Virus record (IMG/VR): IMGVR_UViG_2974575442_000001
Length of the DNA: 58,074 nt
Reading direction: 5' to 3' (one strand)
Origin: Streptomyces virus Karimac
Lineage: Duplodnaviria; Heunggongvirae; Uroviricota; Caudoviricetes
Of this stretch, positions 1,613 to 9,734 are shown in pieces (the first letter of the stretch is position 1; the number at the start of each line of letters is the position of its first letter). The notes beneath the pieces were generated by a model, which was not told where the DNA came from, made no database searches, and saw nothing but the letters and a program-made list of their open reading frames with translations. Position numbers and translations under genes: made by a program.

Positions 1613-2608
1613 TCAGGCAGCCAGACTCAGCACTGCCTTACGGATCTTGTTCTTCTCAGCGTTGATCACCGGGTCGAAACCACTCGCCGCAGCGAACAGA
1701 TTGTCAACCTCACCCTTACGCGGCATCCGGTACCAGTCCAGACGCTCAGTCAGCGCGTTCAGCGCACCGGCCATCGTGCCAGCCAGAGACTGAGTGGTCT
1801 TGGGGCCGTCGCCCGTGTCGGTGAAGATTCCCATCAGCAGATCACGCTTGCCGTCCCACTTGACCTGAGAACCCTTGACGTTCTCAGTCGGACGGTCACC
1901 GTAGATCGTCTTGATCAGTTCATCGAACTGATTCTTCGTGCACTCCGTGCGGAACAGTTCGTTCATCTCGCGCTCGAACTCATCCGCGTAGGCGAAGGTG
2001 ATGTTCAGTGCCTCACGCGCGGCAGCCATGCGACCCTCGATGGTCTGAGTGTGGCGCATCTTGAACGTCTGCTTCACACCGTTACGGAGTGCGAAGTTCA
2101 GCGTGTTCTGACACACGACACGAACCGGAGTGACGCTCGCCTGCACCGCGAGAGAACCGTCATGGGAGGTGTTGACCAGCAGATACATGTTGGTCACGTC
2201 GGAGTCACCGACCAGAACCTCTCGGCCGATACGCAGAGATCCGAAGACCTGCGTACCATCCTTGATAGAACCGGCAGTCTCCCACGTTCCACCACCCGCA
2301 AGGATGCCGTCACCGAAGGCGAACAGCTCCTCATTCTGCACCACCTTATAGCGAGCGGCCACGATGCCAAGGGAGTCGTCCAGCCCATCGAACGGGTTGG
2401 TACGGATCACCTCGAACATGTCCTTAGACACGCGACCCTTACGCTCCAGAAGTTCCAGCCGCACGTTCCAGTTGGACAGGTGTGCGAGCCGAAGCATCTC
2501 GGAAGTGGTGAGTTCACCTTCGAAGACAGTTCCGAGGTTGTGCCACGCGGGCTCCAGACGAGAAGCGAACGCGACCTGACCACGGGAACCGATTTCGAGA
2601 CCGTGCAT
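1613..2608 (-). CDS. DUF932 family phage/plasmid-like protein
   Basis: Motifs AWHNLG, YKVVQNEELFAF, ETAGSIKDG, NTSHDGS and TPVRVVCQNTL. Start moved to ATG 2608 (GGAG SD). Confidence 0.85.
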   Translation of the reverse strand: MHGLEIGSRGQVAFASRLEPAWHNLGTVFEGELTTSEMLRLAHLSNWNVRLELLERKGRVSKDMFEVIRTNPFDGLDDSLGIVAARYKVVQNEELFAFGDGILAGGGTWETAGSIKDGTQVFGSLRIGREVLVGDSDVTNMYLLVNTSHDGSLAVQASVTPVRVVCQNTLNFALRNGVKQTFKMRHTQTIEGRMAAAREALNITFAYADEFEREMNELFRTECTKNQFDELIKTIYGDRPTENVKGSQVKWDGKRDLLMGIFTDTGDGPKTTQSLAGTMAGALNALTERLDWYRMPRKGEVDNLFAAASGFDPVINAEKNKIRKAVLSLAA

Positions 2609-3913: not shown

Positions 3914-4426
3914 TTACTTGCTCTTGACCTCTACGTCAAGGCCCAGCACCACCGGGCTACCGCACTTGCAATAGGCCAGGGAGTAACCGCACTTGCACGC
4001 TTCGTTCTCAGAGAAGCGCCACACCTTACCCTTACGGTCTACGGCCACGTACTCCGTAGAGGCGGAACGGAAACGCGCGGCGTGCGGGCGAACGTCCTTA
4101 CCGCTCGGAGTCTTGACACCGGAGACAGCCTCAGCCTTGACATCCGGGTTAGCCTTTGCGTACGCCTCCAGAATCTCACTGGAGATGCGGCCACGGGAGT
4201 TGATCTCGATACCGTTGGCCTTAGCCCACGCTCGCACCGCCTTAGCGTCATAGGCACCGGCCTTGACCGCAGCGGGCTTGTTGGTACGGACGACGCCCGT
4301 GTCAGCGAAGACGGTACCCGCAGCCTCAGCAGCCTTGACGGCTTCGTTGGCCTTGGCACTCATCCGGCCACGCTTGCCCATCTCAGCAAGACCGAGGGAA
4401 GCGGCGTACTCACGGCGAGTCTGCAT
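3914..4426 (-). CDS. lsr2: Lsr2-like DNA-binding protein (two RGR AT-hook-type domains and a Cys-rich tail)
   Basis: AVRAWAKANGIEINSRGRISSEILEAY matches the Lsr2 DNA-binding domain. The N-terminal TRREYAASLGLAEMGKRGRMS is a second, weaker copy. The C-terminus has CKCGYSLAYCKC. Confidence 0.85.
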   Translation of the reverse strand: MQTRREYAASLGLAEMGKRGRMSAKANEAVKAAEAAGTVFADTGVVRTNKPAAVKAGAYDAKAVRAWAKANGIEINSRGRISSEILEAYAKANPDVKAEAVSGVKTPSGKDVRPHAARFRSASTEYVAVDRKGKVWRFSENEACKCGYSLAYCKCGSPVVLGLDVEVKSK

Positions 4427-4541: not shown

Positions 4542-5264
4542 CTATTTCTTTGTGCGAGAGAATCGAATATCGGCCTTACCGAAGATGCAAAGGCCACACG
4601 TCACACATGCGCCACCCTTTTCGGTAATCAGCGGAATCTGCTTAGCATTCTCGGGACACTTCCCACCGGGAACGCCAGTCAGAGTTTCGAAGATCTCTTT
4701 GCCCTCGTTGAAGGTTTCTCCCAGATATGCCATTTTGACACCGGGATTGTCAGCCGCGCAAAGAAGCCCGGCGTTAAGGTTTTCCTTGTCTACACTAAGG
4801 TAGACAGACAGGTTAGGGATTGACGTGATGAATCCTACATACTCGAATGAACGAGTGTAGATCCAGAAATGCACGTCGGGGAATGCGAGACAGGTTGCCT
4901 CAATTGCTTCCGCATAAGCAGCGGAGAAAATGTCACCATCCGCATGCCACCGGAAAAGCTTAGGGACATTGTGCTTTTCGCATTCGTTCACGAATTCACC
5001 GATCATCTCACCGAGAAGGGAGATCATTTCGGCAAGGGATGCATCCTTGAGCAATTCCCAATTGTGCATTGCCACTGCGAGAAATGCGGGATACTGCTTT
5101 TCGATCCTTCCCGCATAGCAGATGGTTTCACACACACCAGTCGCACCGGGGCAAGAGAACGCCTTACCGGACGGCAGAGAGAATGCGTTTTTGATGAGTG
5201 ACTGCTTACCTGCCTTGTTGGCTCGGACGGTCGTCTTGCGGTCGTTGGTTCGCTTGAGTCCCAT
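4542..5264 (-). CDS. GP88-like protein with a radical-SAM-like Cys motif
   Basis: FSLPSGKAFSCPGATGVCETICYAGR, FRWHADGD and a C-terminal CVTCGLC. Leaderless start (TAGGAT-N6-ATG). Confidence 0.7.
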   Translation of the reverse strand: MGLKRTNDRKTTVRANKAGKQSLIKNAFSLPSGKAFSCPGATGVCETICYAGRIEKQYPAFLAVAMHNWELLKDASLAEMISLLGEMIGEFVNECEKHNVPKLFRWHADGDIFSAAYAEAIEATCLAFPDVHFWIYTRSFEYVGFITSIPNLSVYLSVDKENLNAGLLCAADNPGVKMAYLGETFNEGKEIFETLTGVPGGKCPENAKQIPLITEKGGACVTCGLCIFGKADIRFSRTKK

Positions 5265-5728: not shown

Positions 5729-5860
5729 GCGAACCACCTCTCCGGGAGGTTTTCCCTCCCTTTCGATGTCTCTAGTCTAACAGACGTAAGCGAGGATGTA
5801 CAACACCTTCTGACCAAGATCTTTTGACCGGGGCGGCTAGCGCCCCGAAGGGCGCAGCTT

Positions 5861-6364
5861 TCAGCCGCAAATGGAGCAGTCGGGGCCACAGCCGTAGTCG
5901 TAGTCGTAGCTGTCGTAGTCGTAGCGGGTACGCATCGCGGCGTCCTCGGCGTCGGTGATCTTCTTGACCTCCGCGTCGATGATGTCCTTCGCGTCCTTGA
6001 GACCCAGGAACGGGAAGTCGTTACGGAGACGCTTGATGCACATGATCTTGTAGAGCTTGCCGATCTCCTTGATGATCTTCGGAGCGGCCTCACGCGCCTG
6101 GTTGTAGGCGAAGTCCTCGGCACCCCGCAGCTTGATCATCTCGGCCTTGGTGATCGTCAGACCCGCGTTGCGGATCTCGTTGGCCTTCTGCATACGGCCC
6201 TCGGTGATGCCGAGGTTGTAGCCGCTGGTGTAGCTGCTGTTCTGCTTCTGCTCGATCTCGTAGGTCACCGTGTTGTTGATCTGACGGGCCACGTCCGCCG
6301 CCTGACCGAGGTTCATGTCCAGGCCGTTGTCGATGAAGATCTTGACGATGTCGATGGCGTCCAT
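5861..6364 (-). CDS. Protein with a ribosomal L7/L12 C-terminal-like motif (paralogue 1)
   Basis: KIMCIKRLRNDFPFLGLKDAKDIID resembles the bL12 CTD consensus KVxVIKxVRxxxGLGLKEAKxLVE. GAGG SD. Confidence 0.7.
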   Translation of the reverse strand: MDAIDIVKIFIDNGLDMNLGQAADVARQINNTVTYEIEQKQNSSYTSGYNLGITEGRMQKANEIRNAGLTITKAEMIKLRGAEDFAYNQAREAAPKIIKEIGKLYKIMCIKRLRNDFPFLGLKDAKDIIDAEVKKITDAEDAAMRTRYDYDSYDYDYGCGPDCSICG

Positions 6365-6494
6365 GAATTCCTCTCTTAGAGGGTGTCTCCCTCTTTGATG
6401 TCTCTACTATAGCAAGGAATGGGGACCGGATGCAACACAGTTCCCGAAGATCTTTTCGCCGGGGCGGCTATGCCGCCCGAAGGCGGCACGCTGC

Positions 6495-6683
6495 TCAGTA
6501 CGCCTTGCGGATCTCCAACTGATCCACCTTCTCGAAGTTGATCACGTACAGGCTGCCGTTCGGCTCCTCCAGAACAGCCACCTTGGAGTACAGCTTTTCC
6601 TTGACCTCTTCGATGGGAAGGTTCACGCGGAACTTGACAGGCTGGTCGCGGTCGGTGTACAGAACGGTGACGTGAGTACCCAT
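6495..6683 (-). CDS. Hypothetical protein (62 aa)
   Basis: Own promoter, GGGGG SD, downstream hairpin. Confidence 0.8.
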   Translation of the reverse strand: MGTHVTVLYTDRDQPVKFRVNLPIEEVKEKLYSKVAVLEEPNGSLYVINFEKVDQLEIRKAY

Positions 6684-6789
6684 TTTGGCCCCCTGGCCTC
6701 GTTGGCTGATAGCTAAAGTCTACACGAACAGAGACGAGATTACAACCCCGAACCGGGGCGGCTAGCGGGGCCGAAGCCCCGCCGCCAAT

Positions 6790-7143
6790 CTACCTACGGC
6801 CCATCGGAAGGCCCTTCTTTGCTGCCTCCCTCTCCAGTTCCCAACCGTTGTTCGTCTCGTTGGGGTGAATGTATTCGATCTCCGTGATGCCGAGCAGGTA
6901 GGCGACGAGCAGACGGTGATGACCGTTGGTCACACGGTTGCGCTCAGGGCTGTAAACGATCGGCGTCTTGATGCCGTCCTTCTCGATGCTCTCGATGAAC
7001 GCACGCGGCAGCTCATCGAACTTGGCGAGCATGCACTTTTCCTTGTCGTCCATCCAACGGGAACCGTAGTTGCCCGTGCGGGACTCGGAAGCGTCCCCGA
7101 AGATCGCGTCGTGCCAGAGCTTTTCCACGTTGGCCTTGGGCAT
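6790..7143 (-). CDS. ParB/Srx-like nuclease-domain protein
   Basis: IESIEKDGIKTPIV...VTNGHHRLLVAYLLG is the ParBc signature. Start ATG 7143 (GGAG SD). Confidence 0.8.
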   Translation of the reverse strand: MPKANVEKLWHDAIFGDASESRTGNYGSRWMDDKEKCMLAKFDELPRAFIESIEKDGIKTPIVYSPERNRVTNGHHRLLVAYLLGITEIEYIHPNETNNGWELEREAAKKGLPMGRR

Positions 7144-7269
7144 ATCCACTCCAGGTTTCTCGCCCTGTTGATAGTCTAAGTCTAGCGGAGGATGTGATGA
7201 GGAGTCAACTCAACTCATCAAGATTTTTTGGCCGGGGCGGCTAGGCCGCCCGAAGGCGGCCCGCCATGA

Positions 7270-7413
7270 TCAGACCCAGTTCCAGCCGATGTGCAGGAAG
7301 AAACCGACGAGCATGATCAGGAAGACGCTGATACCAGCGTTGAGCAGAAAGAGCAGCACAGCCATCGGGCCGGTGACGTTGGAAGCGGTGATCGGACCCT
7401 TGACGTTGTACAT
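7270..7413 (-). CDS. Small membrane protein (47 aa)
   Basis: Translated by hand; one hydrophobic helix MAVLLFLLNAGISVFLIMLVGFFL; AGGAG SD. Confidence 0.75.
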   Translation of the reverse strand: MYNVKGPITASNVTGPMAVLLFLLNAGISVFLIMLVGFFLHIGWNWV

Positions 7414-7420
7414 GACACTC

Positions 7421-7543
7421 CTAGAAGAGGGAGAAAAGCACTGTCTTGACTGTCCACAAGCCTAGCATAAGTAGGCCGATGAAACAAGGAATCAGGATGG
7501 TTAGGCCGATACAGCCTATGATCTTCCCGATCAGTCCATCCAC
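7421..7543 (-). CDS. Small membrane protein (40 aa)
   Basis: Translated by hand (MDGLIGKIIGCIGLTILIPCFIGLLMLGLW...). GTG start overlaps the end of the upstream gene. Confidence 0.6.
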   Translation of the reverse strand: MDGLIGKIIGCIGLTILIPCFIGLLMLGLWTVKTVLFSLF

Positions 7544-7692
7544 TCAAGCGGGTCGATGTCCCAGATGTCACGGTGATTGCGGAAGGCGATGGCCCTCTCA
7601 CGACGCATCTCACCGAGCTTCTTGACTTCCTTGATCTTGTTGTTGCGGTTGTTGTAGCGCTCTCGACGCTGCTGACGAAGATCTTCTCGCAT
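7531..7692 (-). CDS. Small basic hypothetical protein (53 aa)
   Basis: Start moved to ATG 7692, downstream of the promoter at 7720-7749. Confidence 0.75.
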   Translation of the reverse strand: MREDLRQQRRERYNNRNNKIKEVKKLGEMRRERAIAFRNHRDIWDIDPLEWMD

Positions 7693-7806
7693 TTGCTTCG
7701 TTCCCTTCGTTGTGTCTCTAGTATATACAGAGGTGGCAGGGAAGTGCAACATAGATCTTCAAGATCTTTTCGCCGGGGCGGTTCGCGCCCCGAAGGGCGC
7801 TAGCCG

Positions 7807-8145
7807 TCAGTCCCGAATGTTCATGACCTCACGGTAGAAACGCTGGTAAGCGCTGGCCGCGTCCTCGGCATCCTCCAAAGACTCATAGTCACCGAACCCG
7901 TCAAGGGTGGTGATGGTGAACGCTCCCTCTTCGTTGCGGGACGCGTAGCGAAGGGTGTACGCCAGGTCTTCCGGGTCGTTGTTGTAGTCGGACGTGACGA
8001 AGATCGCGCCACGCTGGCCGATGGGGAAGATGTTGGGCTGGAGTTCCGTGTTGAAGAATCGCATGGAGGAACGGTTGAACCAGTGCGGCGCGGTGGAGTT
8101 GGTCTCACGGGATGCGATGACGATCTGGTGCATCGTGGAGAACAT
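7807..8145 (-). CDS. Hypothetical protein (112 aa)
   Basis: GAGG SD, own promoter; contains HWFNRSSMRFF. Confidence 0.85.
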   Translation of the reverse strand: MFSTMHQIVIASRETNSTAPHWFNRSSMRFFNTELQPNIFPIGQRGAIFVTSDYNNDPEDLAYTLRYASRNEEGAFTITTLDGFGDYESLEDAEDAASAYQRFYREVMNIRD

Positions 8146-8258
8146 TTGTGTTCCTCTCGCTCGGTGTAAGTAGAGTCTAACACAGTCGTGGGACAGAACA
8201 CAAGCCCTCTAGCAAATTAGCCGGGGCGGCCGAATGGCCCCCGAAGGGGCCAGACGAC

Positions 8259-8525
8259 TTAGAGAACGGGCTTCTTGCCGATTCCCATGCTCTTGCCGAA
8301 GTCGTAGGACTTGCTCTTGACCTCGTAGCCGGGAAGAACCTTGGTGACACGGAACGGAGCGGCACGGTGCAGAGCGGACAGCTTCTCAGCCGTACCCGCA
8401 GCCTCTACGTAGACCTTGCCGGAACGCTCGTTGACGCGGTACTCGAACTCGACTCCGTAGACGGTGGCCATCGTGATGACGACACCAGCGCGCTTGACGG
8501 AAACCTCGCCCATGAGAACGGCCAT
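8259..8525 (-). CDS. Hypothetical protein (88 aa)
   Basis: Own promoter, AAGG SD, host-like codons. Confidence 0.8.
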   Translation of the reverse strand: MAVLMGEVSVKRAGVVITMATVYGVEFEYRVNERSGKVYVEAAGTAEKLSALHRAAPFRVTKVLPGYEVKSKSYDFGKSMGIGKKPVL

Positions 8526-8559
8526 TGTTTTGCCTTTCGTTCGGTGTTACTAGAGTCTA

Positions 8560-8844
8560 TCAGATGCGGTGAACGTTGTCACGCAGTTCGTTGAACGTGT
8601 GCTGACTTCTGTCAGGGACGAAAGCAGCGTTGCGGTAGAACCCGTGATCCACAAGGACCGTGATCGAGTTGTACACAACGTTCTGTACCGTTCCAGTGTA
8701 CGCGATCTTGCCGTCAATCTCAAGGCCCTCGTTCAAGTAGAGCTGAGCCCAACTGTTGACGACTACAACCCTGTCACCCGTACGAAGCTTGCCGAAGTTG
8801 CTTTGCAGATACTTGCGGATCTTGTAGCTGAGAGGCATCGACAT
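8560..8844 (-). CDS. Hypothetical protein (94 aa)
   Basis: Own promoter, GGGGAG SD. Confidence 0.8.
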   Translation of the reverse strand: MSMPLSYKIRKYLQSNFGKLRTGDRVVVVNSWAQLYLNEGLEIDGKIAYTGTVQNVVYNSITVLVDHGFYRNAAFVPDRSQHTFNELRDNVHRI

Positions 8845-8958
8845 GATCTCTCCCCTTCGTTAAGACGAGTCTACATGACGCCGGGCCAGATTGCAAGACA
8901 TTCTCAAAAGAGCCGGGGCGGCCAAAACGGCCCCCGAAGGGGCCGCTAGGCTTTATGA

Positions 8959-9588
8959 TCAGTCCTCACCCATACCGCAACCGCACGGGCACGGACCCTC
9001 GTTGTAGCTGGACTCTTCGGACTCGATGGACTCACGCGCCACGTCGTTGTTGGTCAGCTTGTTGCGCAGCGCGTTGAGCGCGGACTGAGTGGCCAACTCG
9101 GGCTCGGGCGTACCCTCCAGAAGATCCTTTTCCCACTGCGCGAGACCCTGGGGCTCCTCACGCGGGGAGTCCTTCTCGGCCTTCTCGATCTTGGGCCAGT
9201 CGAGAGCGTCGGTCTTGCCGAGAGGCGTGATCATGTCCACGATGGACTTCGCCTCGATCAGACCCAGCGGGCGGAACTTGTCGCGCAGCACCTTGATGCA
9301 GGTGATCTTGCGGGTGAAGTCACGCTCCGTGAAGTTCATGATCGCCCACGTGGTGGCCTCCACAACCTTCGGGTCGAAGGTGGTGCGGATGGAGTCCTTA
9401 CCCGCCTGAACGCCCTCGTTGTAGCGCTTCTCGGCGTACTCGTACTTCTCGTCCTCGGCCTTGTACCGGGCGTCCTCCATCTTGCGACGGAAGCCACGGT
9501 CGATGTCACCCGCGAAGCGGAGAGCGTCAGCGATCTTGGTGTCGGGGAAGTAGTTGCCGACCTGCTGAACGATCTCGATGCGCTCCAT
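8959..9588 (-). CDS. Protein with a ribosomal L7/L12 C-terminal-like motif (paralogue 2)
   Basis: KITCIKVLRDKFRPLGLIEAKSIVD; same overall layout as 5861-6364, including the C-terminal Cys cluster. Confidence 0.7.
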   Translation of the reverse strand: MERIEIVQQVGNYFPDTKIADALRFAGDIDRGFRRKMEDARYKAEDEKYEYAEKRYNEGVQAGKDSIRTTFDPKVVEATTWAIMNFTERDFTRKITCIKVLRDKFRPLGLIEAKSIVDMITPLGKTDALDWPKIEKAEKDSPREEPQGLAQWEKDLLEGTPEPELATQSALNALRNKLTNNDVARESIESEESSYNEGPCPCGCGMGED

Positions 9589-9734
9589 GAGATTTCCCTT
9601 CGTCTTAGGGGACTTCTTGCCCCCTTCGATGTACTAAGCTTAGCAGAGTCTAGCGGGCCGTGTCCAACTGTTCTGGGGGCTGATTTTCAAGATTTTTTGG
9701 CCGGGGCGGTTCGCGCCCCGAAGGGCGCTTGCCG

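Follow-up and report, generated by a model that had tools for sequence, protein, structure and literature searches.

Two paralogous proteins of a Streptomyces phage related to the C-terminal domain of ribosomal protein bL12 and their possible engagement of translational GTPases

The window analysed here, a stretch of 58,074 nucleotides from Streptomyces virus Karimac (IMG/VR record IMGVR_UViG_2974575442_000001), encodes near its start two small acidic proteins, P0001 and P0002. Both belong to a phage protein family which, on the evidence of profile comparisons, certainly descends from the C-terminal domain of ribosomal bL12, the protein of the ribosomal stalk. Only part of this domain has been kept, and its near-invariant residues lie in or beside the segments by which bL12 contacts translation factors. 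We tentatively predict that the two proteins display the docking surface of the stalk away from the ribosome and interact with translational GTPases at an early stage of infection, a possibility that falls somewhat short of being probable. The genes and the protein segments on which the argument turns are the following:

5861..6364, minus strand: P0001, the gp10-type gene, 167 amino acids, isoelectric point (pI) 4.99; open reading frame (ORF) and translation, with the coding sequence annotated in phage IchabodCrane
5972..6076, minus strand: module of P0001 derived from the bL12 C-terminal domain, residues 97-131, corresponding to bL12 (β1)-α4-α5; PF00542, hhalign and AlphaFold2
6197..6220, minus strand: segment YNLGITEG of P0001, residues 49-56; sequence, with Y49 and G56 invariant in an 11-sequence clade alignment
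5864..5893, minus strand: C-terminal Cys cluster GCGPDCSICG of P0001, after a Tyr/Asp-rich stretch; sequence
8959..9588, minus strand: P0002, the gp18-type gene, 209 amino acids, pI 4.84; ORF and translation
9229..9315, minus strand: bL12-derived helix pair of P0002, residues 92-120, corresponding to bL12 α4-α5; PF00542, hhalign and AlphaFold2
9400..9423, minus strand: segment YNEGVQAG of P0002, residues 56-63, within a long predicted helix (19-69); sequence and AlphaFold2
8977..8991, minus strand: C-terminal CPCGC cluster of P0002, residues 200-204 (tail GPCPCGCG); sequence

Relationship to bL12 and history of the family

A sequence-only reading of the window had described the two ORFs as paralogues carrying a bL12-like motif in a non-ribosomal architecture, together with a similar N-terminal helix, a Y-N-x-G-x-x-x-G segment and a C-terminal Cys cluster, and this description is borne out. 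Both ORFs lie where it had placed them and the motifs are exact: KIMCIKRLRNDFPFLGLKDAKDIID occupies residues 106-130 of P0001 (window 5975-6049) and KITCIKVLRDKFRPLGLIEAKSIVD residues 94-118 of P0002 (window 9235-9309), with no third match to the pattern in the six frames of the window. The paralogy is supported by BLASTP (15/25 identities, E 4e-6) and by the matches of both proteins to phrog_5819, at E 3.3e-19 for P0001 (residues 4-136 to profile positions 8-131 of 148) and at E 4e-8 for P0002 (residues 42-127 to profile positions 42-134). The three additional elements are present in both proteins, the N-terminal helix being MDAIDIVKIF in P0001 and MERIEIVQQV in P0002; G63 of P0002 is invariant and Y56 nearly so in an 18-sequence alignment. 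The architecture departs from that of the ribosomal protein in that PF16320 was not detected in either sequence, an Ala/Pro-rich hinge is missing, and a helix is modelled between the N-terminus and the motif.

Taken one by one, P0001 (E 3.7e-4, 21.2 bits, profile positions 4-43 of 67) and P0002 (E 9.6e-3, 16.7 bits, profile positions 11-36 of 67) both stay under the gathering score of PF00542 (25.9 bits), and their single-sequence matches to bL12 in the PDB have E-values of 0.2-0.9; Escherichia coli bL12, run as a control, reaches 107.7 bits over positions 1-67. Such values could be expected if a short amphipathic helix pair had come to resemble bL12 by chance, but this explanation is exceedingly improbable and is refuted at the level of the family. 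The Samistivirus gp3-type orthologues exceed the Pfam cut-off (40.4, 33.1 and 34.3 bits), as does gp258 of phage Riptide (40.1 bits). Against a bL12 profile of 104 sequences, hhalign gave a probability of 97.4 and an E-value of 9.5e-12 for the clade of P0001 (clade A), and 93.5 and 2.2e-7 for that of P0002 (clade B). When the clade-A profile was run against 5.8 billion sequences, 5484 proteins were retrieved at E <= 1e-3, and the matches listed beneath some 50 family members were mostly genuine bL12 proteins (PF16320 plus PF00542), at E-values of about 1e-7 to 1e-6. The family profile likewise found bL12 chains as its top matches among PDB sequences (E 4.6e-4, 2.2e-3 and 0.014). A PF00542 match was seen in 13/13 family members scanned, and these two genes, each occurring twice, account for the only PF00542-like matches in the whole 130.7-kb genome of IchabodCrane. 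Chance resemblance is therefore excluded by the family-level evidence, that is, by the profiles and by the orthologues above the cut-off.

The phrog_5819 family is so far confined to large Streptomyces siphoviruses of the Boydwoodruffvirinae, all the full-length relatives found being in such phages or in metagenomic contigs. When P0002 was searched exhaustively with phmmer against 1.84 billion representatives, only 5 matches were obtained, among them the repeat protein P0016, which matches a low-complexity stretch and was disregarded. In a maximum-likelihood tree of 26 members, two clades were recovered, each supported at 99/97: clade A joins P0001 (whose orthologue in IchabodCrane is gp10) with Samistivirus gp3 and Riptide gp258, and clade B joins P0002 (gp18 in IchabodCrane) with Samistivirus gp4 and Riptide gp259. 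Since both clades hold Karimacvirus and Samistivirus members, the duplication is older than the divergence of these genera. Samistivirus carries the two genes side by side, whereas seven other cassettes lie between them in the phage studied here. P0001 is 95-96% identical across 16 phages of cluster BE1, and 15 phages share a P0002 protein of 100% identity, although synonymous changes have occurred in its gene.

The retained part of the domain and its conserved residues

The coverage of PF00542 ends at profile position 36-45 of 67 in every family match, and judged by these alignments the kept part is at most (β1)-α4-α5, with β2-α6-β3 lost. The AlphaFold2 models contain helices and no strands. 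In P0001, the helices span residues 19-44, 56-66, 73-101, 106-116 and 122-151, with a predicted local distance difference test score (pLDDT) of about 89 over residues 80-145 and of under 50 over residues 31-79; in P0002, they span residues 3-13, 19-69, 73-85, 94-104 and 110-120, with a pLDDT of 81-88 over residues 71-120 and of 87-88 in the last two helices. The retained part is thus modelled as a small all-helical unit within acidic proteins of 145-210 amino acids; the pI values are 4.8-5.0, compared with 4.5 in Streptomyces bL12, and the net charges of P0001 and P0002 are -4.5 and -10.5. Foldseek searches of the PDB yielded nothing at E <= 0.001 for either model, the E-values being 2 or higher; VIA-align, run against 48,161 chains, reached a top Z of 6.7 with helical matches of a generic kind, bL12 not being among the matches listed; and a feature search of ESM-Atlas with P0001 gave no usable match. 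The proposal that the proteins adopt the fold of the L12 C-terminal domain fails this check, which the sequence-only reading had itself set: the motif is homologous to that domain, but the predicted fold consists of helices only, and no fold search returned bL12. Neither P0001 nor P0002 has a complete α/β C-terminal domain with a full-length PF00542 match above the gathering score.

The conservation of the family was assessed by mapping 24 of its sequences onto E. coli bL12 numbering. The equivalents of K65, V/I66, I69, V/L72, R73 and K84 are found in 24/24 sequences, those of K70, L78 and D/E88 in 23/24 and that of L80 in 22/24, with positions 67, 71 and 74 freely variable. In the 18-sequence alignment, seven of the eight invariant columns fall within K94-K114 of P0002. 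The α4-α5 pair with its factor-contact residues (K65, V66, I69, K70, R73, L80 and K84) is therefore present, these residues being invariant or nearly so. The bL12 comparison set was gathered with a pattern fixing residues 64-74, so that conservation on the bL12 side is there by construction over this segment; the counts on the phage side are unaffected. Diaconu et al. in 2005 and Helgstrand et al. in 2007 are said to have found that mutating V66, I69, K70 and R73 impairs the binding of factors (EF-Tu, EF-G). When the bL12 C-terminal domain was titrated with a translational GTPase, nuclear magnetic resonance shifts were seen at residues 66-70 and 80-85 (PMC3505967). As the residues invariant in the family lie in or beside these GTPase-shifted segments, the factor-docking face has been kept and the rest of the domain discarded.

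Possible functions of the two proteins

In the predicted mechanism, the phage proteins would be free, non-ribosomal copies of the factor-binding surface of the stalk. Such copies would engage host translational GTPases early (EF-Tu, EF-G, IF2, RF3 or relatives), and the consequence could be competition with ribosomal bL12 or retention of the factors; more speculatively, the proteins might self-associate via the long Y-x-x-G-x-x-x-G helix and the Cys tail.

Several observations weigh against it. The predicted fold is not the bL12 α/β domain, and hence the binding surface may be arranged differently; the structures closest in shape to the model are helix-hairpin-helix domains, although their template modelling scores (TM-scores) are low; and E82, conserved in bL12, is not invariant in the phage family (D, E or T). 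The neighbouring early genes (Lsr2-like, GP88, ParB-like, DUF932 and DUF7447) are not translation-related. The gp10-type proteins are fast-evolving outside the module, with a ratio of nonsynonymous to synonymous substitution rates (dN/dS) of 0.57-0.96, in the same phages in which the gp18-type shows a dN/dS of 0-0.27, that is, purifying selection. The isolated helix pair also occurs in cellular membrane-anchored proteins, so the module may serve outside translation. Affinity is a further difficulty: the dissociation constant of a single bL12 domain for a translational GTPase is 0.1-0.4 mM, similar to that for EF-G (PMC3505967), which makes simple sequestration by monomers unlikely and would require high copy number or multivalency. 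That the two proteins are minimal stalk mimics, i.e., possibly self-associating α4-α5 copies by which translational GTPases of the host are captured or redirected during the first minutes after infection, is regarded by us as unlikely. If it were true, this would be a viral strategy in which translation factors are targeted with a copy of no more than the factor-docking helices of bL12, and the cellular membrane-anchored helix pairs would be factor-docking sites away from the ribosome.

It is possible, if rather doubtful, that the bL12-derived helix pair now serves as a small interaction or folding module of a generic kind, whose partner in host or phage is unrelated to translational GTPases, e.g., a defence or takeover target. 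Isolated helix pairs do occur in unrelated architectures (P0017; small Streptomyces membrane proteins such as L147:1318-1590), and extra PF00542-like ORFs were found in 12/41 Streptomyces genomes sampled; the dN/dS of the gp10-type is of a kind often met in host-interaction or arms-race proteins, and the neighbour genes are, as said, not translation genes. However, the residues kept invariant are those conserved in bL12 for factor contact, and a new partner should have relaxed or shifted this pattern. A nucleic-acid-binding module of helix-hairpin-helix or helix-turn-helix-like type, contacting DNA or RNA early in infection, is improbable. It is suggested by the ESM-Atlas shape neighbours of P0002 residues 60-137, which are the helix-hairpin-helix domains of RuvA, ligase and RecD2, by the best local Foldseek matches, which are small three-helix bundles of DNA-binding type, and by the Lsr2-like and ParB-like DNA-binding proteins of the same early region. 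The loop L-G-L-K-x-A-K, as read from the sequence, also resembles the G-h-G-type hairpin of helix-hairpin-helix motifs. Yet TM-scores of only 0.19-0.27 and Foldseek E-values of 2 or higher were obtained, no helix-hairpin-helix Pfam family is matched at E <= 10 whereas PF00542 is matched in every member, and the proteins are acidic.

A further alternative is that the proteins are stalk substitutes, in which an N-terminal helical hairpin binds uL10 or pairs with host bL12 and thereby presents an altered factor-binding head. The parts are indeed colinear with those of bL12 (N-terminal helical hairpin, spacer and a module like the C-terminal domain), and under default hhalign settings the clade-A alignment spans bL12 from residue 8 to residue 100. 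The clade-A N-terminus scored 16.1 against the bL12 N-terminal domain (P 0.003, in the correct region), a value equalled by 0/150 column shuffles, and a peptide of a phage bL12-domain protein has been found in ribosome preparations (Mizuno et al., 2019; PMC6375957). Against this, a helix-aware control, for which helical windows from elsewhere in the family or in reversed order were used, reached 15.9, a hidden Markov model of the bL12 N-terminal domain did not distinguish the family from random ORFs in the window, and the N-terminus of clade B, which holds P0002, was without signal (P 0.1); homology to the bL12 N-terminal domain is for these three reasons not established. In addition, PF16320 matches neither P0001 nor P0002, and the spacer is predicted to be helical, with no Ala/Pro-rich flexible hinge such as that of Streptomyces bL12. 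We consider this alternative very unlikely.

The family provides an easy test case for the viral re-use of a piece of the ribosome, with small, acidic and soluble proteins whose sole conserved surface corresponds to the docking site for EF-Tu, EF-G, IF2 and RF3 on bL12. If factors are bound, the proteins would constitute a natural minimal "stalk head" with which factor recruitment could be studied, and they would account in part for the takeover of translation in a high-GC host by these phages, which are rich in tRNAs and low in GC; if no factor is bound, the widespread isolated bL12 helix pair would have some other role.

Genomic setting and comparison with known systems

The phage belongs to cluster BE1 and is 98.9% identical to IchabodCrane (MN428060; Stanwilliamsviridae, Boydwoodruffvirinae, Karimacvirus). 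A 5-kb stretch around both genes is 97-99% identical to sixteen Streptomyces phages of this cluster, the best match being IchabodCrane. These are described in PMC5764925 as lytic siphoviruses of about 131 kb with direct terminal repeats of about 11 kb, which encode more than 40 tRNAs and a tmRNA. The start of the window corresponds approximately to the left genome end, its coordinates agreeing with those of phage Spelly within 2 bases. In IchabodCrane, the gp10-type and gp18-type genes are each present twice, the copies being about 118.5 kb apart, and they therefore lie in the direct terminal repeat (here approximately 12 kb). PF17136 (uL24), which has been reported from Riptide, had no match in IchabodCrane. 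The signals around both genes and the annotated neighbours are:

6370..6375, minus strand: Shine-Dalgarno-like GAGAGG, 5 nt 5' of the P0001 ATG; sequence
9595..9600, minus strand: Shine-Dalgarno-like AAGGGA, 6 nt 5' of the P0002 ATG; sequence
6471..6488, minus strand: GC-rich hairpin TGCCGCC-TTCG-GGCGGCA closing the cassette before P0001; sequence
5840..5855, minus strand: hairpin GCGCCC-TTCG-GGGCGC directly 3' of the P0001 stop, a cassette boundary; sequence
9713..9728, minus strand: hairpin GCGCCC-TTCG-GGGCGC 5' of the P0002 cassette; ACCGCCCCGG and an A-tract come next; sequence
8928..8945, minus strand: hairpin CGGCCCC-TTCG-GGGGCCG followed by TTTT, 3' of the P0002 stop, terminator-like; sequence
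1613-2608, minus strand: DUF932 protein (1e-48), neighbouring cassette
3914-4426, minus strand: Lsr2-like protein ending in the Cys cluster CKCGYSLAYCKCG, terminal repeat
4542-5264, minus strand: GP88-family protein (PF17338, 1e-54; 10 Cys), neighbouring cassette
7807-8145, minus strand: DUF7447 protein (1e-20), neighbouring cassette

Both genes share the same cassette order, namely a GC-rich hairpin, (G/A)CCGCCCCGG, an A-tract, a promoter-like region, a short stem-loop, a Shine-Dalgarno sequence, the gene and the next hairpin; for P0001, the hairpin at 6471..6488 is followed by GCCGCCCCGG, an A-tract and the promoter-like region. This layout was taken directly from the sequence, a simple promoter and terminator scan having missed the elements 5' of both genes. 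The link to leaderless mRNAs that had been put forward for these proteins does not hold: each gene has a purine-rich Shine-Dalgarno sequence 5-6 nt 5' of its ATG and a stem-loop-bearing upstream sequence, and P0001 and P0002 are therefore not leaderless. From their position, both genes are presumably expressed early, from self-contained cassettes of the terminal repeat. A search for RNA sequencing runs found none; two wastewater "RNA-Seq" runs with part of the stretch may be DNA.

Within both clades, only the members of Karimacvirus type have the Cys tail, and its number of Cys varies, so that it is not part of the family core. The GCGPDCSICG-type cluster is kept in the Karimacvirus relatives of P0001 and absent from the Samistivirus orthologues; the tails of P0002 relatives differ among themselves, e.g., CGCCKGCGCQC and CNDCGGCYSCCGGNC. 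Short Cys clusters end three proteins of the terminal repeat, i.e., the Lsr2-like, the gp10-type (GCGPDCSICG) and the gp18-type (CPCGCG) proteins, and such tails may be metal-binding or self-association tags. A Cys4 zinc site made of the helix Cys (C109 in P0001, C97 in P0002) and three tail Cys was rejected as a family feature because the Samistivirus orthologues keep the helix Cys without the tail Cys, and nothing supported the tail as a core like those of ribosomally synthesized and post-translationally modified peptides beside the GP88 gene. Separately, residues 148-157 of P0002 (window 9118-9147, minus strand) read GLAQWEKDLL and contain the motif L-A-x-W-E-(K/R)-x-L-L in an indel segment, as does P0010. 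The L-A-x-W-E motif is also seen downstream of the bL12-like module in Samistivirus gp3-type proteins, which belong to the other clade (LAEWERDLL in Evy, LANWERSCL in Tribute and LADWEREIL in Riptide), and it could be a short linear interaction motif.

Among known systems, the host protein itself is the natural reference. Streptomyces RplL (L064:6167-6550:-) is acidic, like the phage proteins, and shares with them the α4-α5 signature K-(V/I)-x-x-I-K-x-x-R ... L-G-L-K-(E/D)-A-K-x-(L/I)-(V/I)-(D/E). Unlike in bL12, an N-terminal domain for dimerisation and uL10 binding is not detectable in the phage proteins, which also lack the Ala/Pro hinge and β2-α6-β3; they have instead an added helical region with Y-x-x-G-x-x-x-G and a Cys-rich tail, and they are encoded in a phage cassette and not in rplJL.

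The bL12 helix pair is a stand-alone module outside ribosomes and phages too. The cellular proteins with an isolated helix pair resemble the phage family in carrying the same module of about 28 residues (PF00542 positions 9-37) without the second half of the domain, but they differ in having an N-terminal transmembrane anchor and the module at the extreme C-terminus or repeated, with no similarity beyond it. One of them, from Streptomyces curacoi (L147:1318-1590), is a membrane protein of 91 amino acids with a coiled-coil-like stretch and a C-terminal helix pair (35.9 bits); a small protein of S. flavotricini (L149) likewise combines an N-terminal transmembrane helix and a coiled-coil-like stretch with a C-terminal bL12 helix pair; and P0017 (L018:3001-3465), from a Verrucomicrobiae metagenome-assembled genome, has a transmembrane helix, a coiled-coil-like stretch and two helix-pair repeats (PF00542, 38.7 bits). 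S. flavotricini also encodes a non-ribosomal protein of 119 amino acids (L146:1459-1815; G002:C1:5151283-5151477) with a near-complete bL12 C-terminal domain (53.3 bits, positions 1-65/67), which ends in a Cys-rich tail (C..C..C....C....C..C), a layout recalling the phage proteins.

In phages, bL12 domains have been found embedded in proteins of varied architecture (Mizuno et al., 2019; PMC6375957). Those proteins are similar to the ones described here in that a PF00542-type sequence with conserved factor-interaction residues stands in a non-ribosomal phage polypeptide. They differ in belonging to phages of Proteobacteria and in that some have a full bL12 domain, with HHpred values up to 99.9% (PMC6375957), whereas in this phage the profile is covered from about 4 to 43 of 67, the host is Streptomyces, and two paralogues lie in an array of terminal-repeat cassettes.

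The closest known system is that of Riptide, a Samistivirus phage whose genes 258 and 259 were annotated as "ribosomal protein L7/L12, C-terminus domain", with a suggested role in translational modulation (Sagalovsky et al., 2025; PMC12509530). They represent the same family and the same pair of paralogues (BLASTP of P0001 against gp258, E 3e-12 over residues 1-137; of P0002 against gp259, E 3e-8), and they are located in the terminal repeat near an Lsr2-like gene, as in this phage. The Samistivirus proteins are without the C-terminal Cys cluster, whereas the Karimacvirus copies are under the Pfam cut-off and have been deposited as "hypothetical protein" (e.g., gp10 and gp18 of IchabodCrane). 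In the Riptide record (PV654398.1, 123950-124973), genes 258 and 259 of the right-hand repeat are named "ribosomal protein L7/L12", whereas the left-end match (approximately 2600-2713, gene 3) is a "hypothetical protein", an apparent inconsistency of annotation. Other homologues carry related names: JGI calls those of Yaboi and Samisti12 "ribosomal protein L7/L12", and those of Jay2Jay, Daubenski and Evy are labelled in UniRef as large-ribosomal-subunit-protein entries. The Riptide paper gives the annotation, without an analysis of the part of the domain that is kept (PMC12509530). Since a basic annotation has thus been published for the sister genus, what is gained here is a refinement and not a discovery: the L7/L12 annotation of the Riptide orthologues was already known (2025), and what is new is the presence of half a domain only, the ancient duplication and the mapping of the invariant residues.

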